From a virus, in the IMG/VR virus record IMGVR_UViG_3300045988_177920, positions 1 through 64,000 of that record: DNA of 64,000 bases. One strand, 5' to 3'. The number at the start of each line of letters is the position of its first letter. Positions within the stretch are counted from its first letter, which is position 1. This document shows positions 1 to 46,589 of the stretch, piece after piece. The notes under the pieces were generated by a model. That model saw only the letters and a program-made list of their open reading frames with translations. It searched no databases and had not been told where the DNA came from. The translations under genes and the position numbers were made by a program.

Positions 1-746
1 AAGATATAGTATATTCAAAGAATGCCCCAAAGGAACATAATGTTTTATGGATAAAGGCTGGCAAATATAACCCACAGGATTAGCCCGACCCTGAAACATA
101 GGATCAGGGGGAATATCCTGGAAGTAGAATGTATCAATTTGTTGATGGACATTGGATATCTGTAAATAATCGTACCAATATAGAGAATGAGATACCATCA
201 ATTAGAGAGGATTTAACTACTCATGAAGAGGCAATAAATGATTTAACAGAAACTACAACAACTATTGATGGAAAAATAACTGCACTTCAAAATTCAGTTA
301 CACAATCTAGAGGTATAGAGCAATAGTTGGCAATGCCAGTAATTTTTGTTAGTGGACTTCATACTTTATCTATGGATACTCAAAATATTACTGTTACTAC
401 TCCTATTATGCCTGTTCCTGTTACTGGCATGAATAATAAAGATGAAGCTATAGGCAATGCTATTTATTATAAGCATGTTCCTTATATTATTTTAACAAAT
501 TCAGCAAATGGTGCAAATAATGAGACAGGCATTCCTTGTAAATTAGACCCTGTTTCTACAAACTTTGCATTTAAAACTAATTATAGTGTAGCATTAAAAC
601 CTACGTATATTACAGAAACTGCTATTGATATAAATGGTGGTAGTGCAGAACCAGCTCTTAAAAAAATTAAAGTAGAATTTGATAGTATTAATGAAATTGA
701 AGCAAATACTAGTATAAATCATATAAAAGTATCATTAATAGATTAA
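1..746 (+). CDS. tail fibre-like protein, 5' end outside window (translate TAG=Gln)
   Basis: The frame is open from the window edge to TAA 744-746. In-frame TAG at 81-83, 99-101 and 324-326 fuse track ORFs 129..326 and 327..746. DIVYSKNAPKEHNVLWIKAG parallels the N-terminus of the next gene. There is a coiled-coil-like stretch TTHEEAINDLTETTTTIDGKITALQNSV. Confidence 0.6.
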
Positions 747-748
747 TT

Positions 749-1465
749 ATGATAAAATACGAAAATATTATATACTCTGCTAATCCTCCTAAACAAACAA
801 ATGTTTTATGGATAAAAGCAGGAAATAGAAAAGTGAAAGATGGCCAAGATAAGGATTCTGTAGAAATATTTCCTGAAAACCAAATAATATATCAATTCAT
901 AAATGGTAAATGGCAGGCCTTAGGAGATATTGACGAATTAACATATATTGTGTCAACTTTAAGAACAGAAGTAAACGCTCTTAATGATAACAGTGTTACT
1001 AAAAGAGAGTGCGGTAATTACGCCTCCAAATATGATCAGTTGACAATGCCTGTATTTTTAGCTAACATCAGAAATTTATTTAAAGATATGCGAGTTGGTA
1101 GTTCTAAAACTATAGAGGTACCTATGGTTGGAAGTGGAGCTGCTCCATATTATTGGGCTGATGAAAAAGAATATAATGGGTATGGTATTTATTTTAATAG
1201 TGCCCCTTATATAGGAATACAAGACTATTATACAGATCCTACAGTAATATGGTGTAAGCATGAAGTGGGTGATGTACTTACTTTTGATAGAGAGCGTATT
1301 TATAAAAGTGATGTTATTACTGCAAGTTGGAAAAATGCATAGGGGGTTGCAACTGCAGGAACAAAAGCATATCTACAAGTAACTATTCCTAAATGGAGTG
1401 ATTCTAGTAGTCTTAGTGCTGAAGGAATGAGAAAAATAAAATTACAATTAATAGCTGCAGAATAA
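749..1465 (+). CDS. tail fibre-like protein, paralog of the preceding gene at its N-terminus
   Basis: ATG 749; one in-frame TAG at 1340-1342; TAA 1463-1465. The N-terminus MIKYENIIYSANPPKQTNVLWIKAG...IYQFINGKW repeats the motif seen at 3-170. Confidence 0.6.
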
Positions 1466-3021
1466 TGTTTTTTGGAAGATTAGAGTTAGAGAAGATAGAG
1501 AAGTGGTTAAATTCTAAAGGAATTAAAGATTTGGAATTTGACTTAAAAACCTCTATTAAAGATGGTGATTCTATAGTTATTGTATAGAATGGTAAAAACG
1601 TACGAGTTACTCTTAGTACTATAAAAGGAAATATATTTACAAGTTCTGAATTTAAATCATTAGAAACAAGGATCTCTGATAATAAAAAGGCTATTCAGGA
1701 TTTAACTCTTCGTACTTCACTTAATGACAATAAAATAGCTACTTTAAATAATAACATTAATACTCTAGATTCTAAAGTTCAAGAATATATTGATAAAATT
1801 AATGCAGTAGACTAGCTTGAAGGTGATATAAAGTACTTTAATAAAGTAGATGCTAGTAGACAAACTTCTGTATGGAGTCCTTCTTGGGAATATGTAGTAG
1901 GTGCTGACTAGTATTATGATAAACATTATTTGTATAGGCTAGAAAGGCAAGAAAAAATAGATGCATATAAAATAGTAGGATATAGAGATGTTGTATATAA
2001 AATATATGAAGACACTACCTAGGAAACTGTATATGTAAAAGAAGTTGCTAATGCAGATGCAAGTATGTTTGGGGATTGTGTATGTGTTAACTACACTGAT
2101 AAAGATTTTAATGAAATATTAGTATCATTGAAATTCACTAATGATAATACAACTACATTATATAAATCATTAGATGAAGGTAAAACCTGGACATCAAAAA
2201 CTTTAGATTTGGTTATAAATGGAATGCATGTTATTCCTACTAATAAAGTGTTTGACGTTAATGGATTTTTTTACTTTATGGCATATGCTAGAAATAGATT
2301 AAAATTTTCTGCAGATGGTTGTTGGCGATCTATATATTTAGTACACACGGCTGATTTTGAAACATTTGATGGAGTTAAAATTGCTGATTTCTCAGGAGTG
2401 CCTTGGGATTCATCTGTAACCCCTACATTTATGCATGGTAACACTACTTTAGTTTCTGAACCTGATTTTATAATAACTGAAGAAGGATATATTTTCTATG
2501 TAATAAGGGCTGTAGGAGATGTCGGAAATGCTTATAATAAATTATTTTGGTTAGGATTTGGAGGCAATGTTGCCGCTCCTTTAGAAAGTGTAATCACAAA
2601 TGGAATTGACGGAACTCCCGATCAAGGATTAATACCTATTAAGGTAAATACAGCAGGGGGGCATTTAAAGGGAGCTTTACCAAGAATAACATATGTTAAA
2701 AATTATTTATCAGATGAGCAATAGATAAAACTAGTTTGTTGTTATTATAACAGATGTTTAGAAAATGGCTCTGAAGATGGTTCTATATATTTAGGTTCAA
2801 TAGATTTTGATCTTGATGATATAGATATAAGCACATTTAGAGAAAAAGCATCTAATATAACATTTAAAAAGATAGCACAAGGAACACCAACAGGAAAAAG
2901 TAATAGTCCGTTAGGGGGCAACGGAAGTATGATTACTCATAAAGATAACATTATTATTGTAGAGCCCAATGTGTATAATAAAACGCTTCATCAAATAATG
3001 TATATAAAAAATAAGTTATGA
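1465..3021 (+). CDS. tail fibre / receptor-binding protein with a BNR (Asp-box)-like motif, 518 aa
   Basis: ATG 1465 overlaps the previous stop (TAATG). I found no TAA/TGA in frame until TGA 3019-3021. In-frame TAG at 1585, 1813, 1909, 2020 and 2722. The Asp-box-like SLDEGKTW lies at about 2167-2190. Confidence 0.6.
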
Positions 3022-3404
3022 AATATTTATTATTAGTTATTTTAGTTTTTCTTGTTGCTTGTAGTTCTACTAAAATAATAGAAAAAGAAGTTCCTATAGA
3101 AAAAGTAAAAACAGAATATATAAATACATTAAAAATAGACAGTGTCTATATTCATGATAGTATAGATAGATTTGTAAATGGAGATACTTTATATTTATAT
3201 AAATACAAATATATTTATAAGTATTTAAATCATATAGACACTGTAATACAAAAAGACTCTATTGAAACTCCTGTATACATAACAAAAACAGAAATAAAAG
3301 AAGTTAATAAACTTAAATGGTATCAAAAATTACTAATGTGGTTAGGTGCTGCATTTGTAATAGGAGGTATCGCAATAACATGGTATAAACTAAAAAAATC
3401 TTAA
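3018..3404 (+). CDS. lipoprotein with C-terminal TM helix; spanin candidate (unimolecular-spanin topology)
   Basis: MKYLLLVILVFLVAC is a signal peptide with a lipobox-like LVAC. The C-terminal hydrophobic helix is LLMWLGAAFVIGGIAITWY. The gene sits at the head of a lysis-type cassette. Confidence 0.5.
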   Translation: MKYLLLVILVFLVACSSTKIIEKEVPIEKVKTEYINTLKIDSVYIHDSIDRFVNGDTLYLYKYKYIYKYLNHIDTVIQKDSIETPVYITKTEIKEVNKLKWYQKLLMWLGAAFVIGGIAITWYKLKKS

Positions 3405-3408
3405 TCCA

Positions 3409-3765
3409 ATGACTGAAATTCTTATAGCAGTAATTGGAGTAGTATCTACAACTGCAGGAAGTTGGCTATCATGGTTTTTAGCAAGAAAGAAATATAATAG
3501 TGAAGTAGATAATAATGTAATAAGTAATATGGAAGCCTCTCTAGAGTTTTATTAGAAATTAAGTACAGACAATAAAGAAAGATTGGATTCTGCATTATAG
3601 GAAAATAAAGAATTACGTGTTGAAATTGCGTCTTTACAAGAAGATAATATAAACTTAAGAAAGGAAATAGAAGATTTAAAATCTGCAGTAATATAGTTAA
3701 CTACTCAAATATGTACTGATTTAACCTGTTAGCTTAGAGTTATGAGCTAGCCTAAAAAAAAATGA
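3409..3765 (+). CDS. N-terminal TM plus coiled-coil protein (i-spanin-like or lysis regulator)
   Basis: ATG 3409, TGA 3763-3765, five in-frame TAG. The TM helix is ILIAVIGVVSTTAGSWLSWFL, followed by the heptad-rich ENKELRVEIASLQEDNINLRKEIEDLKSAV. Confidence 0.5.
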
Positions 3766-3843
3766 TAAAAATGAAAAAGACAAAAACAAAAACAAGACGG
3801 TCTAAACCGTCAACTCCTAAGGCAGGACTAAAAAAAGGAAAGT

Positions 3844-4122
3844 GTGCTAAAGGATGAAAACTTAAGTAAGATTTTGTATAAAGTGTTGTTGAAATTACTA
3901 AAGCTAATTCCAATATTGGGAGCTATATGTTATTTCTTCAACACTTTATTTACTTATTTTGAAATAAATACTCGTGTTCTTGGTTATTTAGGAGGAATGT
4001 CATTACTCCCCTGGATTTTTATATATATATCAGAAATTGTATTTAAGTTTTGTGTTCATCATAAAATATTCCTATGGTATATATTTATTATAGAAACCTT
4101 AAATTTAATAGACAATATTTAA
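3844..4122 (+). CDS. holin candidate (three predicted TM segments)
   Basis: Track ORF with a GTG start. Hydrophobic segments are IPILGAICYFFNTLFTYF, GMSLLPWIFIYISEIVF and IFLWYIFIIETL. It lies just upstream of the amidase. Confidence 0.45.
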   Translation: MLKDENLSKILYKVLLKLLKLIPILGAICYFFNTLFTYFEINTRVLGYLGGMSLLPWIFIYISEIVFKFCVHHKIFLWYIFIIETLNLIDNI

Positions 4123-4262
4123 ATATAAGTAGGGCTACTTTTTATAATTATATTAAACAAGGTAAACTCCAAAAAGGTATGAAGCAGCAGGGGTTTAAAG
4201 AATTATTTTGGTATAAAAAAGATTTAGATTTATATATAAATTCATATGAGGATAATAAATGA
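4074..4262 (+). CDS. small excisionase/AlpA-like helix-turn-helix protein
   Basis: LNISRATFYNYIKQGKLQKG...WYKKDLDLYI resembles the HTH_17 / Xis pattern. It overlaps the holin 3' end and the amidase 5' end. Confidence 0.4.
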   Translation: MVYIYYRNLKFNRQYLNISRATFYNYIKQGKLQKGMKQQGFKELFWYKKDLDLYINSYEDNK

Positions 4263-4656
4263 AATTATAATACATTGCTCTGCAACACCTGAAGGAAAAG
4301 ATTATACTGTAGAGCAAATTAAATAGTGGCATAAACAAAGAGGTTTTAGTGATATAGGATATCATTATGTTATTTATAGGGACGGCTCTATACATTCTGG
4401 AAGACCTATAGAAAGAATAGGAGCCCATTGTCTAAAGCATAATGCTCATTCTATAGGAGTATGTTATATAGGTGGTGTAGCGAAAGACGGCAAAACACCC
4501 AAAGACACTCGCACTGATGCCCAAAAAGAATCTTTAATAAAACTTATAAAAGAACTTAAAGCAAAATATCCTAAGGCCACTGTACACGGTCACAGGGAAT
4601 ATGCTAATAAAGCATGTCCATGTTTTGATGCAAAAAATGAATATAAGAATTTATGA
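4246..4656 (+). CDS. N-acetylmuramoyl-L-alanine amidase (T7-lysozyme / PGRP type endolysin)
   Basis: ATG 4246, one in-frame TAG at 4324-4326, TGA 4654-4656. Motifs IIIHCSAT, GYHYVI, VHGHREY and KACPCF match the Amidase_2 zinc-ligand pattern. Confidence 0.75.
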
Positions 4657-4751
4657 ATACAATACTAAAGGCAATATTCTATAATACAGAGTATTGCTTT
4701 GTTGAACAAGAGATGTTTGAAAATGCTCTTGAATCTATCGTTGAGCTTTAA
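4653..4751 (+). CDS. small ORF (32 aa), unknown function
   Basis: Its ATG overlaps the amidase TGA (ATGA). It ends at TAA 4749-4751, just before the hairpin at 4760. Confidence 0.25.
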   Translation: MNTILKAIFYNTEYCFVEQEMFENALESIVEL

Positions 4752-4759
4752 TATATTAG

Positions 4760-4795
4760 GTAGGGAAGATAACTTCCCTACATAATATTTTTGTT
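4760..4795 (+). terminator. intrinsic terminator candidate
   Basis: Perfect 9-bp stem gtagggaag / cttccctac with an ataa loop (4760-4781), followed by ataatattttt. Confidence 0.6.
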
Positions 4796-4848
4796 AATAC
4801 AACTATAAGTGATTTATTAATTAATAGTTAATATATGATAAATTATAG

Positions 4849-4856
4849 TAATTTTG
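4849..4856 (+). promoter_or_regulatory. Bacteroidota-type -7 promoter element (TAnnTTTG)
   Basis: taattttg lies 30 nt upstream of ATG 4887 in an AT-rich intergenic region. Confidence 0.35.
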
Positions 4857-4886
4857 TATTGATTAAACTAGATAAAAGGAGAATAA

Positions 4887-6026
4887 ATGGAAGGTTTATC
4901 ATTTGATAATATTTATACAGGTTCTGAAATAGAAAACCTGTTTAATGAAGATATACAGGAGGACTCTACAGAAACTGTAGAAGATACTCCTGAAAAAGAC
5001 GAAGAAAAGAAAGAAGATACTACCGAGGTTAATCCTAATACTTTATTTGAGGATTCGCCAGAGAGCGTAAGTAGTGAAGAAGATATAGTTAAGGAACAGG
5101 AAAGTACCTCATCTGAAAAAGGCACTTCTCCTAAATTTTATTCTTCCATTGCTAAAGCTTTTGCAGATGATGGTATTTTCCCTGACCTTAATGAAGAAGA
5201 TATTTCTAAAATAGAAACTTCTGAAGATTTTAGAACTCTTATTGAAAGTAAAATTTCCTCTGAATTAGATGATAGATATAAAAGAATTGATAAAGCTTTG
5301 GGTATTGGAGTAGAGCCTGACATTATTAAATAGTATGAAGGCGCGTTAAATTATTTAGAAAGCATTCAACAATCATCTATAGAAGATGAAAATGAGCAAG
5401 GAGAAGAACTTAGAAAAAAGCTTATATATCAAGATTTTATAAATAGAGGATATTCCCAAGAAAGGGCTCAAAAAGAAGTAGATAAATCTATTAAAGGTGG
5501 TACTGATATAGAAGATGCTAAAGAGGCTCTTTAGGGTAATAAAGATTTTTATAAAACTGCTTATGATAAAGTCTTAAAAGACGCAGAGGAAGCCGCTGAA
5601 AAATCTAAAAAAGAACAAAAAGAACAGATAGACACACTGAAAAAATCTATACTTGAAGATAAGAAGTTTTTTGGAGATTTAGATATAGATAGATCTACAA
5701 GACAAAGGGTTTTGGATAACATAATGAAGCCTGTGTATAAAGATAAAAACACTGGAGAACTTTATACAGCAATTCAACAATATGAAATGGAGAATAAAAT
5801 AGACTTCATTAAGAATCTTGGACTTATTTTTACATTAACAAATGGGTTTAAAGATTTAAGTGGTTTTATTAAAGGTAAAGTAAGAAAAGAAGTTAAAAGA
5901 GGTATTAGTGAACTTGAGAACGTTCTTAATAATACTCAAAGAACTTCTGATGGAAACCTTAATTTTATGGGTGGAGGTAAAGATCCTGAATCCTTTATAG
6001 GAAAAGGTTGGACTTTAGACGTTTAA
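4887..6026 (+). CDS. acidic coiled-coil protein upstream of MCP (scaffold-like), 379 aa
   Basis: ATG 4887; in-frame TAG at 5331 and 5532 fuse track ORFs 4887..5333 and 5712..6026; TAA 6024-6026. It has an acidic, Ser-rich N-terminus. The scaffold call rests on position and composition only. Confidence 0.55.
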
Positions 6027-6047
6027 AATTTTTAATATATATAATTT

Positions 6048-9000
6048 ATGGCTGGTAAATTAGGTAAATTCCAAATGGTTGGATTCCAACATTGGAAGGG
6101 TTTAACTAAAGAGAACCATCTTGGTTCTATTTTTGGTCTTGCTCCCCAAAAGGCATCTAACCTTATGGTACAGCTTTTAGCTTGGTATAGAGGTAAAACA
6201 CTTGATACATTTCTTTCGTAGTTTCCTGTAAAAGAGTTCGATAAACAATTGTCGCGTAGTATAGTAATATACTAATGAAAAGACTTTAAATTGCTGGAAC
6301 GCCTTTAGAGGCACTCTGGCTTTTCTAAATAATTATTATTTCAGCAAAATGTTTAGGCTATGAATAATGAAAAATTTTATGATATAAAAAACTATGAAGG
6401 ATATAAAATTACTAAATCAGGTAAGATATATTCTTTAAAAACAAATAGATTTTTGAAATTTGATTACTCTACAGAGTATCCTAGAGTAAGACTTTATAAT
6501 AAGGCAAAACAAGATTTTGATACTTTGCTAGTGCACAGACTTGTAGCTATACAATTTATACCAAATCCAAGAAATTTGCCTTATATAAATCACAAAGACT
6601 GTAATAAGAAAAACCCTTCTATGTATAACTTAGAATGGTGTACTGCACAGTATAATACAAATTATGCTTATCAACATGGACAAATGGGTACAGAAGAAAG
6701 TAATCCAAATTCAAAATTAACTCAAGAAGAAGTTTATAATATATATAAACTAAATGAACAAGATGGAAAGTCTTATAAAGAAATAGCAAATATTTATAAT
6801 ATAAGTGCTAATACTGTTTCTGACATAGTTAGAGGAAAAAGGTGGACTAAAACTTATAAAGAATATCATGGGGTGGAAACCCCTTATATAAGAGTTCCCA
6901 AAATCTATATATCAGATGAAGAAGCAGATTTCTATATAAGGCAATATTGGATACAAGGTAAAACAACAACTCAACTAGAAGGGAAATTCAGCCAATCCAC
7001 AATAGAAAGAGTTGTTTTTGGTAAGTTAAAAAAAGACAGATTTGAATTATTTAGAAAAGAAATACAGAGAGCATTAGGTAATCAGCAGCCAAATCCTAAC
7101 ATTTAAGGAGAGGTTCAACGACTATAATAAGTCTATCCTAAGGGATAATGGTATAGTCTGAACTTTATAGAGATATAAAGATTAACAAAATTGGATGACA
7201 GTGAATATACGTGGGATGTAATTGGTTCCTCTAGAAGAAATATCCCTCTTGTATGTGCAAGAGATGAGGATGGTGCAGTAGTAACTGCAGGCAGTGCAAA
7301 AATGGTAGGTGCTCATACAGCTCCCTTTGAATTAGTCTTTGCAGAAGACTGGTTTGCCGATGGTGAAGTATTCGCCATCTAAGTATAGTAATATACTTAA
7401 AGAAAATTGAGCAAAATCGGTGAAGCCCGCCACAGCTATGGGTAATACCGAGTTAACTTTAATGTAAAATATTAAAGTAATGTAGAGGGTAGAAATTGAA
7501 ACTACAAATGGTGTTATTTACAAAATAACGTGTCTCTTAGAAAAACAAGAACATATAAATTAACTCAAGAACAAAGAAAACAAATAATACAAGAAATATA
7601 CCAAGGGTATTCAAGAAAAGACATTATTAACAAATGGGGGATAAGTAAAAGTTATTTATGTTAGTTAATAAAAGGCCAACGTAGAATATAATATTTCCAC
7701 GAGTGCTCAACTCCTGAAAAGGATGAAAATTTACCCCGAACTATTACGATGGTAAAGTAATAGAACTATAGGATAAAAAGCCTATAGGATAACATTTGGA
7801 ATACATTGTAGGTGAGCTTAATGAACTCTATCAATTCCGTATTTTAGGTGACCCCAAGAGTGAGGGAACTAATTTTGTATACACTGTAGAACTTGCTGGT
7901 GGTAATACTGCAGGTGTTCCGCCTGAAAGACTTCTCAGTGGTGAAAGATTCTCTATTGAAGCAGCCTTTGTAGAGAAGGAACTTAGTAGAAAAGTGGGTG
8001 ATATAAGATTCACAAGTCCTGTATCTATGCGTAATGAATGGTCTACCATTAGAATACAGCATAAGGTACCTGGTTCAATGCTTAATAAGAAAATTGCTTG
8101 TGGTATTCCTGTAGCAAAAGAAACCCCAAATGGCTATAAGAAAGATGTAGTTAATAAGTGGATGTTCTATGTAGATTGGCAATTAGAACAGCAATTCTCA
8201 GAATACAAGAATAATGCACTTGCATTTGGCAGAAGCAATAGAACTTAGAATGGTGAATATATGAATATAGGCAAATCAGGCAATGCAATTACGACTGGAG
8301 CTGGCCTTTTTGAATAGATGGAGGTATCCAATACTATTTATTACAATAACTTCACTCTCAAATTGCTTGAAGATGCTTTATATCAATTATCTGCTGCTAA
8401 GTTAGACTTTGGTGAGAGAACTTTTATTATAAAGACTGGTGAAAAAGGTGCAATAGCATTCCATAAAGCAGTTCTTGATACTATATCGGGATGGACCACA
8501 TTTACATTAAATGGTGATCAACTCGGAATTGTACAAAAGACTCAAAACAAATTGCATAGCAATGCTTTAAGTGCCGGATATCAGTTTGTAGAATACCTTG
8601 CTCCTAATGGCGTAAGAGTAAAAATTGATGTAGATCCGTGGTATGATGATCCTGTAAGAAATAAGATACAACATCCTAATGGCGGTCCTGCTATGTCGTA
8701 TAGATTTGACATTATGGATATTGGCTCTATGGATTAGCCTAATATCTTTAAGTGTCAAATAAAGGGGCAGCCTGAATATAGAGGATATCAGTGGGGATTA
8801 GCGGCGTAAGCCTTTACACATTTCTCAGTTCCCAATCCACGACCTAGAAACAGAAGAGGTGGATAAAGAAAAACAAGGTTAATTGCTGGAAGTTCCTTAG
8901 AGCTTTCACTGCTTTTTAAACTTCAAACATTTTAATATGGAAGTTAAAGAATTATGGAAACCCTTAGAAGAATATAAGGGTATTGAAATTAGCTCAATTG

Positions 9001-9785
9001 GCAGAGTAAGAAAAGCTGCTAATAAGAGAAGAAAAGAGAGAATATTGACAGAGTTCCCAAAAGATAGAGATGGTTATTACAGGTGCTCGGTTCAAAGACT
9101 TGATGGAACATGGACCTCACAACCAGTTCATAGATTGGTTGCTAAAGCATTTATAAGTAATGTTGATAACAAAACAGTAGTCAATCATATTGATGGGAAT
9201 AGAACAAACAACAGAGTTGAAAATTTAGAGTGGGTAACTCCTAGAGAGAATGTAGTCCATTCCTTTAAATATGGAGCCAGGAAAGTTTGCAAAGATATTC
9301 CTAAGAAAGTGCTACTTACAGATTTTCAAATATCTCAGATAGACACTCTCAGGACTCTGTATACTGTGAATCAAATAGCAAAGATATTCAATATAGAATA
9401 TCAATCTCTTAAGAACATAATTCATAAAAAGAAACAATGTGAAAGATTGGATAATCAGCAGCCAAGCAATTATAATTCAATTTATAATTGAAGGTTCAAC
9501 GACTATCCCATTTGGGAGTAGGCTTCAAGTGAAGCCGAAATGCCTTGCTCAGTTATATAACTGATGAAGATATAGTCTGACCTCTATAGAAATATAGAGA
9601 TTATACATGGAAACGATGTATAAGTAACATTAAATGTGAGAAATCCTTTCACAGGTGCTATTGGTAATCAATACATGAGCTTTGATGAAGATGCTGCTGT
9701 ATTCCACAGAATGGCAACATTTGGCATTTGTGTTTTGGATCCTACTAGAACAATGTCGTTAATACCTGCTTGCTTACAGGGTTAA
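6048..9785 (+). CDS. major capsid protein, four exons: 6048..6242, 7194..7364, 7799..8798, 9637..9785 (504 aa)
   Basis: The exon translations [19 protein letters not shown]..., [19 protein letters not shown]..., [18 protein letters not shown]...[20 protein letters not shown]...[16 protein letters not shown]...MDQPNIFKC and RNPFTG...[31 protein letters not shown] match my recollection of the prototype crAssphage MCP. These junctions preserve the alignment length. Each exon ends in T and each intron ends in G. Confidence 0.85.
6243..7193 (+). mobile_element. group I intron 1 in MCP (carries an HNH endonuclease ORF)
   Basis: Conserved core-like elements are present: aaattgctggaac (P-like), aatcagcagcc (Q-like), ggttcaacgactat (R-like) and ggtatagtctga (S-like). 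gtcg at 6252-6255 can pair with the exon end cgaT. Confidence 0.7.
6360..7106 (+). CDS. HNH homing endonuclease (NUMOD4-like N-terminus, HNH_3 core, C-terminal HTH)
   Basis: [34 protein letters not shown] and [25 protein letters not shown]. There is no in-frame TAG. The C-terminal NQQPNPNI is encoded by the intron Q-like element. Confidence 0.75.
   Translation: MNNEKFYDIKNYEGYKITKSGKIYSLKTNRFLKFDYSTEYPRVRLYNKAKQDFDTLLVHRLVAIQFIPNPRNLPYINHKDCNKKNPSMYNLEWCTAQYNTNYAYQHGQMGTEESNPNSKLTQEEVYNIYKLNEQDGKSYKEIANIYNISANTVSDIVRGKRWTKTYKEYHGVETPYIRVPKIYISDEEADFYIRQYWIQGKTTTQLEGKFSQSTIERVVFGKLKKDRFELFRKEIQRALGNQQPNPNI
7365..7798 (+). mobile_element. group I-like intron 2 in MCP (no intact ORF)
   Basis: gccatc at 7374-7379 is an exact internal guide for the exon end gatggT, with a U-G wobble. 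The intron ends in G at 7798. It shares the hairpin agtatagtaatatact with intron 1. The core differs from introns 1 and 3. Confidence 0.6.
7480..7691 (+). pseudogene. decayed homing endonuclease remnant (GIY-YIG-like start, then an HTH tail in another frame)
   Basis: ATG 7480 is followed immediately by TAG, then [25 protein letters not shown] and a stop. In a second frame, [48 protein letters not shown] ends at TAA 7689-7691. Confidence 0.4.
8799..9636 (+). mobile_element. group I intron 3 in MCP (carries an HNH endonuclease ORF)
   Basis: aattgctggaag (P-like), ataatcagcagcc (Q-like), ggttcaacgactat (R-like), gaagatatagtctga (S-like). The spliced junction gives QWG-L-RNPFTG. Confidence 0.7.
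8937..9491 (+). CDS. HNH homing endonuclease (NUMOD4-like, HNH_3, HTH)
   Basis: [45 protein letters not shown] and [20 protein letters not shown]. There is no in-frame TAG. The C-terminal DNQQPSN is encoded by the Q-like element. Confidence 0.75.
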
Positions 9786-9802
9786 TAAACAATTATATTA
9801 TT

Positions 9803-9830
9803 ATAGGTTAGGAGGAAACTCCTAACCTAT
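9803..9830 (+). terminator. hairpin after MCP (terminator or RNA-stabilising stem)
   Basis: Perfect 12-bp stem ataggttaggag / ctcctaacctat with a gaaa tetraloop, 18 nt after the MCP stop. Confidence 0.55.
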
Positions 9831-9859
9831 ATATAATATAAAACACAATATAAAAGTTT

Positions 9860-9867
9860 TAAATTTG
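9860..9867 (+). promoter_or_regulatory. TAnnTTTG -7-like element
   Basis: taaatttg lies 7 nt upstream of ATG 9875. If functional, the transcript would have almost no leader. Confidence 0.3.
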
Positions 9868-9874
9868 GAGAAGT

Positions 9875-10855: not shown

Positions 10856-10871
10856 ATAAATAAAAAATATT

Positions 10872-11828: not shown

Positions 11829-11830
11829 CT

Positions 11831-12520: not shown

Positions 12521-12542
12521 GTTTAATTTAATAATTTTTATT

Positions 12543-13484: not shown

Positions 13485-13502
13485 TTATTAACAATTAAAA
13501 TA

Positions 13503-13540
13503 TAAGGGGAAGGGATTATTATCCCCTCCCCCTTCTTTTT
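13503..13540 (+). terminator. G/C-rich imperfect hairpin plus T-run
   Basis: aaggggaagggat tatt atcccctccccctt is followed by cttttt. Confidence 0.45.
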
Positions 13541-13543
13541 ATT

Positions 13544-14432: not shown

Positions 14433-14480
14433 TAAGCTGATAATATTAATAAAGGACTTGTGAATATTAATTAATATAAT

Positions 14481-14488
14481 TATATTTG
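14481..14488 (+). promoter_or_regulatory. TAnnTTTG -7-like element inside a long-loop inverted repeat
   Basis: tatatttg lies 22 nt upstream of ATG 14511. It is flanked by the inverted repeat aaggacttg (14452-14460) / caagtcctt (14489-14497). Confidence 0.3.
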
Positions 14489-14510
14489 CAAGTCCTTAAT
14501 TGTAAATGAT

Positions 14511-21222: not shown

Positions 21223-21225
21223 CTT

Positions 21226-25331: not shown

Positions 25332-25343
25332 TAAAAATTAATT

Positions 25344-36500: not shown

Positions 36501-38880
36501 AGGCATTACCCATTCTATGGAATAAGCTGGTTTTAAATTGAGGGGCTCTATAAGAGACAGTACTTCCACTAGGGAGGTTTTTATCTATTTCTCTTTTTAA
36601 TTGTTTAATTTCAAACAATAACTATTCTTTTTCAGACAATTCTCCCTCATATCCTTTTGAAATTATTTTTGTATACAAGGCATTATAATCTAATTCTTTA
36701 GTATACCCGAATTTTTCTAGATATGCTTTATTAATATATTCATCTTTTAAAATCCAAATTTGTTTACCACCAGGTAATTCTTTATGATAATGTGTTTTCT
36801 TTAAAAACTCACGTCTTGCACTTGCAAATTCTACAGAAAACTTTATAGCTAAGTCTCTTTCATCATAATAATCCTTATACTTCTCTTTAAACTTTTTTTG
36901 AAATTCTAATTTCATGGATTGGTATTCTCTTTCATATTTACCATAATCATATATATCTAGAAAATTCCCGGTATAATGCCCCTATTCATCTTTTTCATAA
37001 AATTCATCATTACGCATACCAATGGAATCAGCACGCTTTTTTAATGCTCTAAGCTAGTCGTGTAATTGTATGGTTTTAATTGCAGCCTGTGTTTCAGCGG
37101 CTTTATATGCCTTATACACAATCTAGTTTAAAACATCTGAAGAATTATACATAGCTCCTATCCACTATCCGAAATAAGTACCATCTTCACTAATTGCTTC
37201 TAAAAGCTATGAAATTTTAACATCCTATTCAGGAACAACAACTTGTTTAGCTCCTTTAAATATTCTCTACTAGGCCATATGTATATAATCTTTTCCATAA
37301 AGCCCCTCTAAAAACTTACAATAATAGTCTCTTGCAATGCCGTGAATGTATCTCTCCAAATTTATTTTTGAATTTTCTTTAGCTGTACTATAACCAACCA
37401 ATTCCGCTAAATTATCATATAATGTACTTAGTTGTTGTGTGTATTTATTACCTTCTTCATCATAAGCTACACGTTCTTTATATTCAGATCTTTTGTTTCT
37501 ATCTCCTATAAAGTTTTTCAAAATAACCATACACTCTAAGATTGCTTTTACAGTATCTCTATACTATCTAATTGTTTGACCATCTTGAGTAAAATTATTC
37601 CAATAATCTGTGTTGTTTTCCATATGTGCTTTTACAACAGAAAGATTTCTCCTAATAGGTTCTACTTGAACAATTAATCTTTCAATAAGAGTAAACAAGC
37701 CATTAACCGCCTATTTACGCATAATCATATCAATATTAGAGTAATCTTTAGACCCCTATACAACAATACTTTTTATTGCCTCAGCAGCTTCAGCATTATA
37801 TGTAGAAAGTAAATCAGACAGTCCCATCAAAGAATTTCTAACACCCTCAAAAGCTTGTGCTACCGCATGTTTTTCTATATCATAAAATGTTTCTTTGGTC
37901 TCCAATGCCTGTTCAACAGTTCCTTCAAAATCTTCATCATTTAAAAAGCTTTCAGCAATTTTATTTGCGCTATTTAGAGCTTCTGTTTTTAATGCTAAGA
38001 CTTCATTAAAAGTAATTTTTGCAAATATTCGTTTAGCTACATATGCGATTCTATTTGCTAATTTATCCCAAGCTGTATTACTGCTAAGCTTATTTATAAG
38101 TGCTTGTCCTACTAAATATCCAGCAGTTTCTCTTCTTGGCTATGCTCCTAAATTTTTATTTTCTAATTCGTCTCCAAAAATTCTATTAATAACGTCTGAA
38201 TTTAATAACTATTCTAATCGTTGTACTAATCTAGATTCGCCCAAAGAACCTATAATAAAGTGCCCGGCTTCTTCTGCTAACACTCCTCCAACATTTTTAC
38301 CGTCTCTAATGGCAATTAAAGCCTACAGACCATTTACAACTCTATCAGATTCTAATGTACTGTATCTTCCTTCAAATTGTGAGTGATCTACAAATTCATA
38401 TGTTACTCCATGCTGATTAAGTTTAGCCTAAAGTTTTTCAGCAAGAGTTCCGCTTTTAAGCTGTTTATATAAATCCTTTGTAGTTTTATCTGTTTTCTCA
38501 GTTATAAATAACCGCACTTTCCCCCCTTCTGTTCTTTGAATTGTTGCAAGGTATTTATCATTATAATTAGAGTTTTTATTAAAGTTAAATAACTTTTCAC
38601 AAGCCTCTTTATATGTCATTTCTCCTGCACCTATCTAATTATTAAGGGTCTCCTTTATCTTTTCATTATATTCTGTTGTATTAGCAGCTTTTAACAAGGA
38701 GGAGAATGTTGGTTCCCCCTCCTCGTTTAAAACTATTTCATTAGCAGAAGCCTCTAAAAATCTACTATCATGAGCAACATTATACCAATATTTTATAAGT
38801 TCTCTATTTTCTTTACCCACAACAGCTTCTATTTCATCCCATAGTTGGTGCTTATCAGGTTTAAGTATACAAAATCCCAT
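33541..38880 (-). CDS. giant protein (1779 aa), last gene of the RNAP block, function unknown
   Basis: ATG 38880, TAA at 33541-33543. I scanned all forward line-aligned triplets and found no tta/tca (TAA/TGA), while many cta (TAG) are present. It fuses track ORFs 38635, 38428, 37270, 36622, 36046, 35278, 34624 and 33982. Confidence 0.7.
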
Positions 38881-38882: not shown

Positions 38883-39725
38883 TTAACAAAGTTTTTTACT
38901 AATAGTGCCATCCTCATTTACTTCATAGCACTCTTTTTTATTTTTAATATCATTTAAAATTTTACGTTTACCTTCTTCACTAGAAGTTTCATAAAAATCT
39001 CTAAGCTAATCATCCATTCTATCTATAATGGATTTTTCATATAAAGAATTATAAGAAACAGGTTTAATAATATCAGAATCATCAAATTGTCCAATTAAAT
39101 CAGAATTTTGAATTAATTGTTCACCTTGTTTTAAGGTTCCTTTATCTACTCTATCTTCACTAAATCCTGCTTTCTAAGGAATACTTCTTATATATGTCAT
39201 TGGAATACTTGGGTCATCGGTTTTATTAAATCCCTAATTACTACCGCTATCACAGATATATAAATAATCAATTTCATCTATATTTATTGTAAATGCCGGA
39301 ACATAGCCTTTATCTTGAGATATAAAGAGCGGATTATTTACTTCTTCATTATTAACAATTAATGAAGTATTAACCTATATTTCTTTCTATGCATAACCGG
39401 TATTACCTTTAATTATTCGTTTTATTGCATTATAGTTATTATCATTTTCATATATCTATTTTACAAATCTCCTATTATCGCTATGTCGCAATATATAGAA
39501 CTACGCTATATTATCCTTTGTTTGCTATAATCCGATCTTATCAAAATTATCATTCATCATACTATAAAGCCAATCTCTATATGATTGCCTGTTTCCAGTA
39601 GCTTTATTTATAGTCATTGTTAGATTTGCAGTTATAATCTAAGGTAAATAAGGAGTAAAACTTTTTGGACCAAAGCCTCTTTCATTCTAAAAATAATCAT
39701 ACATATAAAGATCTTCAATAAACCA
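38883..39725 (-). CDS. 280-aa protein between the two giant genes
   Basis: ATG 39725 lies three codons after the RNAP TGA and in the same frame. TAA at 38883-38885, two nt before the next ATG. About 12 in-frame TAG. Confidence 0.5.
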
Positions 39726-39734
39726 TCTGGTATT

Positions 39735-42700
39735 TTCATCTTTATATAGATTTTCAAATAATGCTATTATGTCTTTTTTATCAAAATCTAAATTTGCGGA
39801 GCCTTTAAGACCAATACTATACCAATGTCTTGTTAATCCCATTGCAGTTGTTTCAGAGTGGGGTTCTATTGATATTAAACCATTTTCTTTTAGCAGCTTA
39901 AGGGTCTATATTATAGGCTCCTAATTATATTCATAATCTGAAGTATTTAAAATTATATCAGGAAATTCATATTTATAATAGTATTCCTAGGACATTATCT
40001 GTCCATTTCTTTCTATAAGAGTGTCTTTGTTAAATCTACTCTATGGAATATTTTCCATCATATATACCATTATGTCTTTAAGTATACCATTAACCGTATC
40101 CTCATCCATAGCATAATTAGCCATATCTGCCAGATTCTATATAACACCTTCATATAAATTATTTTTATATGGAAAGTATTTACACATTTTATTTAACGAC
40201 TTCCTATTCATATCAAACATTGCCTATTCATAAGCAAATGGACTAAAATCTATAGAACGTAGATAACTCCAGTTATCTGTATTTATATCAGACATACCAA
40301 TAAAATAATTTGAATCTTCTGATGAATCAGTAATAACCATAGTGGTTTTATTTTTTTTCTTCTTTTGTCTAATAGCTAAATCATCTAAGTATCTTTTAAC
40401 TCTATACTGCTATGCAATCATACTACCAAAAGATACTGCAACAGCATTACTTGCTGTAAATTTAGTATTAGTAACAAACTCAGAAACCTCTCTAGTAACA
40501 TCTAAAATTTCCTAAAATAACTTTAATACAGATAGTTGCCCAATAATAAAATCTGCCTGTTCAGATTTATTTCCAGCAATTGTTCTAGTATCTATGTTAT
40601 TTGAGTTTTTAGCACTGTTTATAACAATATTAGTAGCCAGTCTATTAGCATTTAAGTACTGAGATTCTTTTCCTGTAGCTCTAAACCCACTAAATCTTTT
40701 GTCATTTAAAAGGTAATTTAATGCACTGGAAGTAGTTCTTCCCTCATTTGCAGAAATTTGGCAAAGTTCCTTTATTATAGGCTAATTTAATAATAATCCT
40801 ATTTCTGTAGTAGAATAACCTAATCTTGCTAATACTGCAGCTGCATCTGCAGTAGTTTCATTAAGATTCAAATAATTTAATACCGGATCTTTTACAGCAT
40901 CTACAGATGCAGCGAGCAACTCAGCGCAAGTTTTTTTAGCATTAGGAGAGTGGATTAAATCTTTAAGTCCATCCATGTGATTACCGAAAGCAATGGGGCT
41001 ATTAAGCTCATATTTATGTAACATTGAGGATATGGCATAGTTAACATTTTGGTTTGCAAATATACCAATCAGTTTACTAGCTACCTAATTTTGTTCATTA
41101 TAGATTAATTCTGTTAAAGGATCTGTATAATCATAATTAGGTTTTGGATCAGGTGTATTATCAACACTTTCCTCTATTTTTCTAAAATTTAACTCGCGTT
41201 CATCAACAACATAATCATCAAAAGACTTCTAAGATAAAGTTAATATACGCATTATTTTAGCAGATCTTTTTGCTCCATTAAATTCACCAGGTTGAAATCT
41301 TTCATTAAGAGTTTCAGGGTCTTCAAGTCGTCGCATAATAAGATCCATAAGCATATTATTTCTTGCGACTCTATTATTACCCTTCATAAATTTACCATTT
41401 TCATCATAACTATCCATAACTCTTTGATTAGAATTATAACGATAATTCTATTTACGTACTATTTTTACCTATTTCTCTAATGGTGCAATCTCTCCTTGAT
41501 TTATTAAATCAGATAATGCATTACTAAAGATTTCATTCTTATCATAATTGCTCTTTAAATAATCATTTTCACCCCAATAAGAATTTAATGACTTTTTATG
41601 TATCTTTTCTTTATTTGCAGGATTTTCTTCCCACTATTTTTTTGTCTGCTCCAGATGGGTTTTAATTGAAGGATTATCCTTATAAATTTTAGCCCATACT
41701 GCATTCTTTTCTTCTTCAGATAGATTTTCATCTTCACTTTCATAATACTATGTAAATGCGAATTGTTTACGCATTAAGTATAGTTTGTCAATATCAAAGT
41801 CAAATCCTGCTGTTGTAGTGCCTTGAGCAGGAACTCTGATAACACCGCCTTGTGTTGGCAGTGAACACCTCTTAACTCTAAGGCGCATCATAGAATATTG
41901 AGACTCTGTTGGAATTCTATAAGATACAATATCAAGTATTCCAGGGTAATCCCTTTCTATTAAAGTTTCTTCTACATCAATACCTCCTATATTAATTGTG
42001 CTACCAGGCACTGTTTTAAAAGTGCCATCAGGATTACAATAGTCATTAAAATCTAACTAATGTTCCCTTCCAGACTAATCAGTCCACTTAAAATCAAACG
42101 GTATTTCACAATCTCCATAGACAATATTACCATTCTCTCCTTCTCCAACAGTGTGCCATTGTAGCCCGCCATAGTCTTTAGAATCTTCTTCAATCTTAGT
42201 TATTCCCCAAGCAGATGCTTGAACCAAAGCTCCGCCCTATATCTTCTGTTTATTAACCATTTTCTTAAATAAAGAAATAAGGGCTTGTGAAGTATTATGT
42301 TCTATACCTAATTCATATAAAGGAACTAAAAATTGGCCATCACCTGTAAGACAATAAGCTATTATATTAGCTTCATTTTCTCTACTATTAGCTATAACAT
42401 TTTGAATTAAGGCTTTACTTACCTTATCCATAGAATCTATAGCTTTCTCAAAATCCTGATAGCTTTCTATAATGTTAGCGACTATTAACTAGTTGTAAAA
42501 TTGAATAAGCCTATTGCCGTTTAAATCAACTTTTCCATTTCCTAAATTAACAGTAAGATCTTTAGAAACACCCCTCAAATAACTACTATAATCGCCTGAT
42601 TTATCAATTCCTGTCATTATAATCTTTCTAATCTATGTACCAAATAAATTAGAAGCATTTATATGTGCAGGAACATTAGTTTGTATTCTATAGTCTTTAT

Positions 42701-45700
42701 AATCTAACTCATGTATATAAGCTCCTGTACCATTATTTTTAGTATTATATATGATATCTTTAATACTCTATGAGTCTATTTTAATTAATCCCCCTTCACC
42801 ATACTTTTTAATATAAGCTCTTTGCTAAGATCTAGTTACATTTTCAGAATCAACAATGTTACCATTCTTATCCAGTCCCTATATAACTTCTCCACTCTAA
42901 TCAACGAATAATCCATTTTTATTTGTTTGAAAATCTAAAGCTATAGAGCCAAATGATCCCACTTTTACACATTTAGTAGAACAAGCAACATCTATATCAT
43001 TTTCTTCCATAGCTTCTCCTAAGGCGCGAAGGTTAGAGCCGGGAACACAAAGTTCAGGAATAATAATAACTTCTGCATATTTATGCTATACAGGAACTTT
43101 AAGAACATGCTCATTACTAACACCAACTTCTTCTATTGTATATAAATAAGGTTTTAAGGGCTAAAAAACAACATAAAGCTGAGAAAGTCTTGTTATTTCT
43201 TTCTCTGTAAGCTCTTGTCTATTCTCCTTTTTCATTCTTGATCTAATGCTTTGAATTTCATCATATACATTTTCTAAGTAGTTATTCCATTTACCTGCAG
43301 CAGTCATTACTTTTCTATAGCTTTCTAAAGTTCTATAGCCCTGGCCATCAGTCAAAGTATTATTTTTATAAGCCTTTACAACATTAGAATTTTCTCCAAA
43401 TCTTGCTTTAATTATATCCATGAAAGTAGCAGTACCATGATATTTTCCAACATCATCTGCAGAGATGCTTAAGTCATCAAAATATATAGCATGTTCTTTC
43501 CCATCTCCCAATATAAAAGACTGCTATTTTTGATCAAAAGCTTCTTCATCAAGTTTTGTTCCAGGAGCATGTAATTCCTTATAACGTTTTTGGAGATCTT
43601 CCGTATTTTTATAAAATCCGACATCAATAGTAAGCATCTATAACTAACAAACAGTTGCCAACTTATAATTGATATAAAATTCTTTTAGTCGATCTTTTAA
43701 TATACTTTCAATATCTCCCTTATTATTATCCTTAGCTGTTTTAATTTCTTCCTTTGTTAAAAAGTTTTTTAGATAAGTAGGATTGTTTTCGTCATTTAAA
43801 TCAAGTAAATGATCATTACCAAGCTGTCTATAAAATGCCTCAAAATCATTATCAATAGACTATCTTATACAAGTTTCTATGTAAACATCGTCTGCTAATT
43901 CCTCTATAATTCCCGCTTCCTTATTTGCCTTTTTATATATATGAACTTCTGTACCATTTTCAGTTTGTTCTTTCTTTAAAATTAAAAAGTCATTTAAAAA
44001 AGGTAAAGCTGTAAATTTTAGTTGATCATTTTCATCCTCAAAAGTTTCAAGTCTTTCCCAGCTATTTGCAGAGCATGTTTGGTTCATTTCTAATGCTAAT
44101 TTAGCCCTTTCAACTTCTGATTTTGCTAATCCAACCAATTCCTTTATTGCTGTGTTTTTAGAGTAATATTTAGCAGTTATATTTTTGCATACTCCACTGT
44201 CTCCTAAGATAAATAATGGATAATTTGCATAATTTTTTCCTACACCCTTTTCTCCGGCAATTAATCTTGGGCTTAAAAATAATTCTAACATTGACCAAGC
44301 ATGCCTTTTTCTAGTATAATTTTCAAATCGTCTTGCTCCTGTATTTTTAGAATCTCCTAACAATCTAAATGTTCCAAACTATTCTGCAAAACTTCCCGGT
44401 TTAGAAAGATCAGATTCATATAATTCTCTTAACCAAGTATTTCGTATTATCCATTTACTTCCATCCTCACTTCTTGTCGCAAACATAGGACAGTTATTAA
44501 AGTATTTATCTTCGATGTATAACCTAAGCCCTTCAGTATCTTTTTCTTCTACAAATTCTTGAATTTTCTCAACAAGATCTCCAAGATATGAGGGAAGAAC
44601 ATCACTTGAAAGCATTGTGTTCTTACCTTTTTTATCTACGTAAGGAACTCTTACTTCCTACGTTTTATCCAGAGCGGCTAAAATATCAGCAAGCTTATCA
44701 ATAGCTTCTTCTACTACACCTTTATCACTTATAGATTTTGGAGGCTTTATACTTAAAAAAGAAGCTATTGATAATTGTCCTCCAGAATTTATTATTTGAT
44801 CTATAAGACTTTTGTGATTTAGTGAATATTTATATAAATTCTACATTGCAGACTAAAACCTTCTTGCATATCTGGAATTAGTAGCAATAGTGTTTGCAAT
44901 TTCTGTAGATATATTAAATCCTAGTTTACTTCCTATATACTTTATAATATTAATTCTAGTAAGTCTATCATTATCTTCTTCAGTTTTTGCTGATACTCCA
45001 ACATTTTGCATAAACTTTGTCGGAGATTCTATAAGAGATTTGCTTTCTCCTTCTTTTTTAGTAACCTCTCCCTTTACAAACCAGTCGAATATAGTATTAG
45101 AAAAAGTTTTTAATTCTTCAGTATCTAATACTACACTTCCTCCTTCTTGTCTTTTAGCTAAGGTATTCACATTTCTTCCGGATATAAGTAATTCTCTACC
45201 ATTATATAGTAATGACTTTGCAGTAGCTGCTAAATTAAATCCCTTTTTATCATTTAAACAAAAAGTTTTTAAGTAATGCATTCCCTAAGAAATTACTTCC
45301 TATACTACATATAAGGGTTGAAAATTTCTTTTTAGATCTACAAAAAATTTAGTTTGTAGTTTTGATGCTTCTGCAGCTTCATCTTTTATATACTATATAA
45401 AGTCTCTTTGCTCCTATATTTTAGACTCAGATTCATTACTTAAAATCATATCTGCCAACACTTGTTCCTCTTCAGCAAGTGCATCTAAAAATTCCTATTT
45501 AGTATCAAAAGATTCTGATGAGTCATCTCCATATCGTACAGTTAAAGTTAGTTTATCTAGGATAGGCTTAAGCCAATATCTCCTTCTATTATCGCCAGTT
45601 TTACTGAAAAATTCATTATAAGAAGACTCTGTATATTTACGAAGCTTTCTCATCATTCCTCTAGATGAAGTAGTTCCTCTTACTGCATCTAGTAATACCT

Positions 45701-46589
45701 AATGCACCTATACTGGGTCTAGGTATTTAGTATTACCTAAGTCATCTTTTTCTATTTCACCATATTCATTTAACTAAGGTGTATTTGCTAAAACTGCTCT
45801 TACTTCATTTCCTATAGAAGCATATGCTGACAAAGATTCTGCTATTTCCTACCAGCCTTCTCTGATAGAGGATTCCTCTATATCAATTTTTTCTTGTAAA
45901 TCTTCTAATTCAAAATTGCCGTCATTTGCAGTATCTGTAAAATCATTAAAGGCACCCATTTTAATACCTTCTATATCTCTAAGACGTATTCTTGCAAGAG
46001 TAACCATTGCACTCCAATTTCTTAAGACTAATTCTATTTGTTCTGCTTCATATTTAGCAGTAAGATCTTTTTCATCAGAGGTTTTATATTGTTCCCAGGC
46101 ATCAGATCTCTGTTCAACCAATCTACGGTACATTTGATTAAATATATACTATTGTCCAAAAATAGCTCTTCCTTCACTATCAAAGGTACCTTTAATAATA
46201 AACTCTCTTTCTAATCCTGCGGCATCTAAATCCATTTTCATTGTTTCAGTCACCATATCACTAAACATATGGCTTATCCAACTTACTCTTGCTTCTCTAA
46301 TAGACGCATTAGGAATTTCATCTTGAAGTTTAACAAATACTGAGGCAATATTTGTACCAGCGGCTTTAATCTCTTTAGCTTCTTTTTGCTTTTGTTGTCC
46401 TTCAAATTTAGTTATAATTGCTTTAATATCAGAATCTTCCATAGATTCCCAATTCTAATCTCCATAAGTTTCATCATATAATCCTCGCATCCATGCAAAA
46501 TATTTAGATGTGCTTTCTGGAGAACCTAAGAAAGGGTCACTCTAGGCTAATCTTTTATCAAGTTCTGTAGGTATATAACACGGTCCCAT
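39735..46589 (-). CDS. crAss-type virion RNA polymerase-like giant protein (2284 aa)
   Basis: ATG 46589, TGA 39735-39737. I scanned the frame and found no TAA/TGA across 2284 codons, with tens of TAG. AGFDFDIDKLY (DFDID at 41787-41801) is the DxDxD metal-binding motif reported for crAss-like / phi14:2 gp66-type RNAPs. Confidence 0.75.

Follow-up and report, generated by a model that had tools for sequence, protein, structure and literature searches.

How can phage genes run through dozens of stop codons? The question is raised by a 64,000-nucleotide stretch of viral DNA, positions 1 to 64,000 of the IMG/VR record IMGVR_UViG_3300045988_177920 (the window, at its full length). A preliminary description of it, made from the letters alone, took TAG in the structural and RNA polymerase (RNAP) modules as a sense codon, most likely for glutamine (Gln, Q). 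We find that homologue alignments run through the TAG codons with Gln enriched opposite them, and that the same genome carries an intact tRNA with a CUA anticodon. With a probability of about 0.9, the late packaging, virion, lysis and virion-packaged RNAP/cargo genes use code 15 (TAG as Gln), a phage tRNA(CUA) reads it, and the change works as a translational gate on the late genes.

The coverage by open reading frames (ORFs) of at least 50 amino acids (aa) was compared among three codes: the standard code (table 11), TAG as sense and TGA as sense. The first 46.6 kb does fragment in the standard code as first described, and re-calling it with TAG as sense lifts the coding density of 1-46589 from 52.7%, in 88 pieces with a median of 78 aa, to 96.7%, in 31 ORFs with a median of 232 aa. 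Reassignment of TGA was tried and rejected, the coverage staying at 54.7%. At 46590-64000 the coverage is 94.0% with table 11 and 93.1% with TAG as sense.

The longest joined frames are as follows.

16465-21222, plus strand: ORF free of TAA and TGA, 1585 aa with 39 TAG
21322-24177, plus strand: ORF free of TAA and TGA, 951 aa with 35 TAG
25344-33491, plus strand: ORF free of TAA and TGA, 2715 aa with 65 TAG
33541..38880, minus strand: gp49-like giant protein, 1779 aa with 33 TAG (tblastn to gp49 of Bacteroides phage crAss001, E = 2e-31)
38883..46589, minus strand: gp50-like RNAP, 2568 aa with 56 TAG (crAss001 gp50, E = 2e-92)

Four of the five frame lengths reported before (1585, 951, 2715 and 1779 codons) are recovered exactly, and the fifth, given as 2284, has to be replaced by the 2568 codons of the RNAP ORF. 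A public independent gene call on an identical contig also makes the RNAP 2568 aa.

In frame, the 9,981 codons of six giant genes hold 244 TAG and neither TAA nor TGA. Their two off-frames hold TAG 353 and 254 times, TAA 359 and 774 times and TGA 82 and 545 times. Chance is thus excluded, because TAA and TGA are common off frame and absent in frame. The longest run free of them in the wrong frames of 16465-33491 is 137 codons. All 23 late genes, the spliced capsid gene included, have 303 in-frame TAG in 14,353 codons, or 44% of the putative Gln codons. The compact junctions noted before are present, TAATG at 1465 and 16465 and ATGA at 3018. Every late gene ends in TAA or TGA as had been claimed, but this is partly true by construction and Ring protein 2 is a possible exception.

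The two codes divide the window into blocks.

1..33491, plus strand: recoded late part with tail-fibre-like, lysis, capsid and ring/tail genes and the gp44- to gp47-like giants
46590..64000, minus strand: replication and nucleotide-metabolism (early/middle) genes, read the same under both codes

The plus-strand late part has 214 in-frame TAG in 21 genes, with all terminators TAA or TGA, and is syntenic with crAss001 gp22-gp47. The RNAP is the last recoded gene, and the standard-code-compatible block begins just upstream of its start codon. That block has no in-frame TAG in the 3,635 codons of its 13 genes within the window, as compared with 128 and 79 off frame, and its stops are all TAA or TGA. 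Hence TAG is confined to the late block, which agrees with the structural and RNAP modules named at the outset. Upstream of the window, the recoded block runs on through the portal and TerL genes to the tRNA(CUA).

Could the TAGs be real stops that were never reassigned, the late region being in decay, wrongly assembled, or expressed in pieces or through slight leakage past the stops? Table 11 does fragment the region, and the NCBI third-party annotation (TPA) entry DAI58519.1, 'portal protein [Crassvirales sp.]', is a 90-aa piece of the 801-aa portal. However, the giant frames are interrupted by TAG only, the homologue alignments continue across it at full length, and a relative with 64% protein identity has TAG positions in common. 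The sequence is identical in independent assemblies and a dedicated tRNA(CUA) is kept in the genome and its relatives, so we give real stops practically no chance. DAI58519.1 is a standard-code miscall of this recoded phage.

Contigs of other assemblies match the window exactly, which excludes an assembly artefact. The ENA ERZ28595906 scaffold_199 (93,398 bp) is 100% identical to the two window stretches compared, 800-10597 and 42839-64000. Logan ERR414265_3409 matches 1-9991 and ULSH01014741.1 matches 1-842, both without difference.

Which amino acid TAG stands for was read from 153 related IMG/VR loci around the capsid and RNAP genes, plus the crAss001 genome. The window proteins, with TAG masked as X, were aligned to them by tblastn, which keeps the stop codons of the relatives visible. 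The alignments of 145 loci have no in-frame stop, which marks them as standard-code loci. Another ten loci are recoded, with TAG as each of the 272 in-alignment stops. The portal homologues were left out of the tally, because their collection translates TAG as Q in recoded contigs and the count would be circular. This large protein collection calls the same portal contigs as the TPA fragment, with TAG translated as Q.

Opposite 181 TAG sites of the window, the 145 standard-code loci have Q most commonly, at 19.5% against a background of 3.3%, an enrichment of about 6-fold. Lysine (Lys, K) follows at 11% and glutamate (Glu, E) at 8.8%. At the window's own CAA/CAG sites the same loci have Q at 30.8%, K at 10.6% and E at 12%, and the remaining partner profile of TAG (K, E, S, N and R) is like that of these sites. 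Where the position is at least 90% conserved, TAG faces Q at 19 of 30 sites (63%) and CAA/CAG does so at 41 of 63 (65%), so the two are indistinguishable. The real K codons at conserved sites face K 108 times in 139, and the real E codons face E 113 times.

The closest recoded relative, 3300013947_000003, gives the same answer in both directions. The window TAG faces TAG 19 times and Q 17 times there, and the relative's TAG faces the window's TAG 19 times and Q 15 times. Several orthologous late genes have TAG as the terminator in standard-code relatives and TAA or TGA in the window, a replacement that true reassignment predicts. TAG also lies within CAA/CAG poly-Q runs as had been noticed, in 21322-24177 from residue 427 onward (AAXQQXQQE). 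The portal protein carries another Gln-rich run with TAG, EQQQXQQELAQXQLQXXAXXKXAE.

Two TAGs at 8315 and 8735 had been placed opposite Gln of prototype crAssphage. Both are in frame, lie in capsid exon 3 and face Q, while the motifs quoted for them, IFEQTEV and MDQPNIFK, are those of crAss001 gp32. This phage, not the prototype crAssphage, was used for our comparison.

What could decode TAG in this genome? The preliminary description saw neither a suppressor tRNA nor a release-factor gene in the 64 kb, and both absences are borne out; in the window ARAGORN finds no tRNA and no Rfam family scores above threshold. It proposed scanning the complete genome, and beyond the window ARAGORN finds an intact tRNA(CUA) in a stretch of scaffold_199 (L164).

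L164 3719-3790, late strand: tRNA(CUA), intact cloverleaf (ARAGORN; Rfam tRNA, 45 bits)

This gene stands at the 5′ edge of the recoded block, and ~8.7 kb separate it from the downstream position that is homologous to window base 1. From tRNA-Arg(UCU) the map reads on through a tRNA-like element, an ORF for a 77-aa membrane protein, tRNA(CUA), small ORFs, TerL and portal to the window, and two relatives keep this order. On this arm TAG is absent from the four genes upstream of tRNA(CUA). It occurs once in the first ORF downstream, 20 times in TerL and 27 times in the portal. Elsewhere in the genome are three further tRNAs, Leu(UAA) and Ile(GAU) by ARAGORN and a third by Rfam.

The end of the tRNA(CUA) acceptor stem has U1.G72, G2-C71 and A73, and that of the crAss001 tRNA-Gln(UUG) has U1-A72, G2-C71 and A73. 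Since overall identity does not single out Gln, the Gln call rests on the protein alignments, to which U1, G2-C71 and A73 lend weak support.

TAG might instead be sense for another amino acid, namely Lys, Glu or pyrrolysine. K and E are the next commonest partners of TAG, Lys tRNAs of crAss001 are the nearest to tRNA(CUA) by overall identity, and ARAGORN labels the CUA tRNA 'tRNA-Pyl'. But with empirical substitution profiles of 20 residue classes, the log-likelihood is best for Q (-492.6), 44 units better than for K (-536.5) and 58 better than for E (-550.4). The conserved TAG sites have Q 19, E 4 and K 2 times, as real Gln codons do, and TAG sits in the poly-Q runs. As to pyrrolysine, ARAGORN applies 'Pyl' to any CUA anticodon, the cloverleaf is ordinary and the genome's Pfam lists hold no pyl genes. 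Thus another amino acid is very unlikely, and the sense of TAG as Gln in the late genes, read here from the sequence, is well supported.

Beyond window base 64000, four early-arm genes do have TAG, only at or near the C-terminus, with a backup TAA or TGA 1-20 codons farther on.

L167 10309-10737: early-arm gene with C-terminal TAG
L167 12431-13615: early-arm gene with C-terminal TAG
L167 1260-1988: early-arm gene with C-terminal TAG
L167 2124-2489: early-arm gene with C-terminal TAG

In the first of them TAG is codon 130 of 142 and is found also in a relative, and the alignment to the crAss001 homologue ends two residues before it. In the DnaB-like gene it is codon 393 of 394. The C-terminal TAG of these genes looks like the early stop, with the backup stop serving the late suppressing state, so that the read-through later would be harmless.

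These genes bear on whether the reassignment belongs instead to a host that reads TAG as Gln, with no temporal switch of code in the phage. In favour of this, no release-factor gene or antagonist of release factor 1 (RF1) was found in the phage. Nevertheless, the phage has its own tRNA(CUA), its replication genes have no internal TAG, the early-arm genes have the C-terminal TAG with a backup stop, and the sharp bimodal distribution of TAG would be pointless in a code-15 host. Moreover, standard-code Bacteroidota are the predicted hosts of the recoded crAss-like phages published so far (Borges 2021; bioRxiv 10.64898/2026.08.21.746148). A recoding host therefore has only a slim chance.

From the codon statistics, the equivalence to Gln and the presence and position of the tRNA, all of which are observed, we infer the charging enzyme, the timing and the overcoming of RF1. 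Early in infection, the standard host machinery would translate the TAG-free genes while TAG still means stop. The tRNA(CUA) would accumulate, presumably charged by the host glutaminyl-tRNA synthetase (GlnRS). TAG could then be read as Gln and the full-length late proteins would become possible. If TAG is read as Gln only after the accumulation, the code change would act as a translational gate on the late and lysis genes.

Several points weigh against the gated Gln reading. The tRNA(CUA) does not resemble tRNA-Gln overall, as the nearest crAss001 tRNAs are those for Lys with an identity of 0.64-0.68. No gene for release factor 2 (RF2), an RF1 antagonist or an aminoacyl-tRNA synthetase is in the Pfam lists recorded for the genome. 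Q faces TAG less often than it faces CAA/CAG (19.5% and 30.8%), and Gln plus TAG make up 4.8% of the late codons as compared with ~3.3% Q in the relatives. This excess and the lower match together imply that many TAGs are at poorly conserved positions, where the amino acid is unreadable from alignments. Finally, with 56-65 TAG per ORF, 95% read-through per codon is computed to give <6% full-length product and 98% to give ~27-32%. RF1 must therefore be strongly outcompeted, with a read-through of ~98% or more.

The use of TAG varies among the late genes. Its share of the Gln codons is 17% in the capsid protein, 12% in the gp31-like protein and 9% in ring protein 3/4a, 43-50% in the giant proteins, 71% in the spanin-like lysis protein (3409-3765) and 75% in Ring protein 2. 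The lowest use is thus in the most abundant virion proteins and 43-50% in the low-copy giants, which suggests that suppression carries a cost or is not complete.

Ring protein 2 (14511-15257) has one TAG that may still be a stop.

15189..15257, plus strand: C-terminal tail of Ring protein 2 with four TAG, at codons 227, 234, 236 and 243

Codon 227 adjoins the ends of the standard-code homologues (implied residues 224-225), 27 of 55 matches stop with TAG there, and the Pfam model ends at residue 217. Past it comes a 21-codon tail that holds the three further TAG and overlaps the next gene by 35 nt. This TAG may be a retained ancestral stop or lead to a read-through extension, and it is the only such place among the late genes.

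TAG is not the sole cause of fragmentation in the capsid gene, a point that amends the preliminary description. TAG does break the gene, and so do three introns, so that 6.0-9.9 kb is fragmented under any code.

6048-6242, 7194-7364, 7799-8798 and 9637-9785, plus strand: four exons of the major capsid protein gene, spliced product 504 aa with 4 TAG
6243..7193, plus strand: capsid intron 1 with an HNH/HTH endonuclease ORF at 6360-7106, no TAG
7365..7798, plus strand: capsid intron 2, no ORF
8799..9636, plus strand: capsid intron 3 with an HNH/NUMOD4 endonuclease ORF at 8937-9491, no TAG (Pfam HNH_3 and NUMOD4)

After splicing, the protein and crAss001 gp32 are 72.7% identical over residues 1-504. 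Each of the three introns is preceded by an exon with T as its last base, as expected for the U.G pair in P1 of a group I intron, and itself has G as its last base. A core, AACGACTA...ATAGTCTGA, is common to introns 1 and 3. Rfam places Intron_gpI in intron 3 at 9330-9599 with 41 bits and E = 3e-8, below the gathering score of 50, and its group I model does not match introns 1 and 2. The three introns appear group-I-like.

Signs of mobility are intron-less alleles in close relatives and the HNH ORFs of introns 1 and 3. The Pfam scores of the former ORF are both sub-cut-off, at 21.9 bits for HNH_3 (cut-off 24.8) and 24.9 for HTH_38 (cut-off 27). A strain 98.4% identical to the window genome, ENA ERZ28614590 scaffold_29 (L162), lacks intron 2 precisely, its exons joining as GGT|GAATAC. 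The two capsid-intron endonuclease ORFs have 23 Gln codons, all CAA or CAG, and the ORF at L162 2766-3584 is TAG-free as well. The intron ORFs read alike in both codes, as expected of elements moving between standard-code and recoded phages.

In the same sister strain neither ARAGORN nor Rfam finds a CUA tRNA. The gene, the only one for tRNA(CUA) in this strain, is there in two pieces.

L162 2719-3789: split tRNA(CUA) gene, exon 1 at 2719-2751 (ends ...CUCU) and exon 2 at 3753-3789 (AAAACC...)

A 1,001-nt insert, ending in G, interrupts it within the anticodon at U35|A36. Once joined, the exons give a canonical CUA tRNA fold, in which the acceptor stem has a compensatory change relative to the intact allele. 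The insert encodes a 272-aa TAG-free ORF (L162 2766-3584) with an HNH-like motif by eye, no Pfam match and no close relative in IMG/VR. It follows the splice-site rule of the capsid introns and has in common with introns 1 and 3 the pairing motif AACGACTA...ATAGTCTRA. Its class is unproven because the Rfam group I model does not score it, including in a 421-nt slice at E up to 10. The intron is absent from the window's genome and two relatives, which have the intact allele.

Between tRNA-Arg(UCU) and tRNA(CUA) lies the other unusual element, a tRNA-like RNA without an anticodon.

L164 ~3401-3466: tRNA-like RNA
L162 2394-2460: tRNA-like RNA
L158 ~11787-11855: tRNA-like RNA
L160 ~1880-1946: tRNA-like RNA

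It has normal acceptor, D and T arms (Rfam tRNA, 46 bits in L162), and a short hairpin stands in place of the anticodon arm, with a loop that varies among the relatives (GAAA-type in two). In L160 the acceptor stem shows covariation, and the 5′ half is like crAss001 tRNA-Gln(UUG). We propose that it may derive from tRNA-Gln and could act, for example, as a decoy for a tRNA-targeting or termination factor. That the code switch depends on RNA splicing in part of the phage population, and that the tRNA-like RNA is a further part of the code change, is a tentative idea that we consider rather doubtful.

Just upstream of tRNA-Arg(UCU), the stretch at L164 ~3190-3250 (…TTTACTTTGTAGCGTCTTAATACT…) is conserved in L158, L160 and L162. 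The relatives keeping it have protein identities of no more than 64-80%, and it may serve as the promoter for the tRNA pair.

The phage itself has a G+C content of 30% in the window, which is roughly two-thirds of a genome of about 93-94 kb. Its gene order is colinear with crAss001 (NC_049977, Steigviridae), and the TAG-masked window proteins match crAss001 gp22 to gp50 in order by tblastn, with the colinear span at 1465-46589. Pfam finds Crass_capsid (2e-109), crAss_AuxCP (5e-90), CrAss_Ring_1/2/3_4 and Amidase_2. By Pfam and gene order, it is placed as a crAss001-like, Steigviridae-like phage (formerly the 'beta' group). Its lineage is about 70-73% identical to crAss001 in the capsid and 63% in the portal. 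The nearest IMG/VR contig, the recoded 3300013947_000003 (96.9 kb), is ~80% identical in the capsid and RNAP segments compared.

Against 50,697 GenBank phage records, megablast finds no match for 25344-46589, and for the early block its sole match is ~320 bp of a crAss001-type DNA polymerase gene at 76%. IMG/VR has no exact match to a 50-mer from the start of the window. Pfam domains of the early block, taken from an identical contig, are DNA_pol_A, NRDD, dUTPase, Thy1 and ThiF. The gp50-like RNAP has the DFDID (DxDxD) motif, and its core has no phmmer match among PDB sequences. The crAss001 homologue of the neighbouring giant, gp49, is annotated as 'putative RNA-polymerase subunit'.

The lysis genes stand together in the late part.

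3409..4656, plus strand: lysis cassette with a gp28-like coiled-coil/transmembrane protein and an amidase

The gp28-like spanin-like protein has 5 TAG and 2 CAA/CAG, and the amidase (4246-4656) has 1 TAG. Surroundings of a small HTH ORF (~4074-4262), at ~3971-4224, are unalignable to strain L162, a strain-level indel. Another such indel is that scaffold_199 lacks window 68-799. The latter may come from recombination between two neighbouring tail-fibre-like genes, which are apparent tandem paralogues with similar N-termini. Upstream of the window, TerL (L164 6667-9921) is 1084 aa long with an intein (precomputed Pfam Hom_end_hint and Hom_end), while crAss001 TerL has 762 aa.

Late-gene TAG-to-Gln recoding with phage suppressor tRNAs is known in the Beta (Steigviridae), Delta and Zeta crAss-like phages (Yutin et al. 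2021, PMC7886860). It was generalised, with a model of early-standard and late-suppressed translation (Borges et al. 2021/2022), and metaproteomics confirmed Gln at TAG for two crAss-like phages (Peters et al. 2022, PMC9523058). The preliminary description called the window an instance of this phenomenon, and all the sequence-level features of published code-15 late recoding are found here. Likewise, in-frame TAG is limited to late genes (structural, lysis and transcription-block), the standard code suffices for the replication genes, the phage has a tRNA(CUA), and Gln is drawn from alignments. The enrichment of TAG in lysis and tail genes of the recoded phages of Borges et al. is echoed in the spanin-like protein and Ring protein 2.

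Nothing essential differs from the published code-15 crAss-like phages, and the late-gene code 15 here is a clean member of an already published phenomenon, not a new one. The window's lineage adds capsid introns and a TerL intein to the recoding, which were reported mainly for the Delta and Zeta groups (Yutin et al. 2021). With crAss001 it shares the gp22-gp50 order, in which the capsid, the auxiliary capsid, ring proteins 1-4 and the giant cargo/RNAP proteins are recognisable. In contrast, crAss001 is a standard-code phage whose capsid gene is uninterrupted and whose 23-25 tRNAs include tRNA-Gln(UUG), whereas the window's phage has about five tRNAs including tRNA(CUA), plus the anticodon-less tRNA-like relic.

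The supE-type suppression of E. coli, by a GlnRS-charged tRNA-Gln with a CUA anticodon, is similar in that a CUA tRNA inserts Gln at UAG against RF1 and has a weak first pair (U1) followed by G2-C71. It acts partially and is tolerated at a few codons. In this phage, 303 TAGs in essential genes imply near-complete decoding, and GlnRS charging would be the counterpart of the supE one. Group I introns occur in bacterial tRNA anticodon loops, as in cyanobacterial tRNA-Leu(UAA), and phages have them with homing endonucleases, as in T4 td and nrdB. The sister strain's tRNA(CUA) resembles these, being split in the anticodon after U, with an intron that ends in G, carries an HNH-like ORF and shares the core motif of the capsid introns.

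The recoding literature searched yielded no account of a recoded phage with an intron in its stop-codon suppressor tRNA, so the intron-split suppressor of the sister strain may be new. The same literature repeatedly reports recoded phages without a detectable suppressor, and suppressor tRNAs were found in 40% of the TAG-recoded genomes only (Borges et al.). A split suppressor is missed by tRNA finders. What this study adds is modest: where the tRNA lies, a suppressor allele that is split, and next to tRNA(CUA) a tRNA-like RNA that lacks an anticodon.

In practice, annotation of this phage requires both code 15 and the spliced capsid exons, as public TPA records already hold table 11 fragments. 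Biologically, it is one more well-documented case for stop-codon reassignment gating the translation of late and lysis genes, and the suppressor tRNA placed exactly at the 5′ boundary of the recoded block bears on the gating model. The intron-split suppressor of the sister strain gives a concrete reason why surveys often miss suppressor tRNAs in recoded phages. If its intron self-splices, intron-split suppressors would explain some of the recoded phages reported without a suppressor tRNA.

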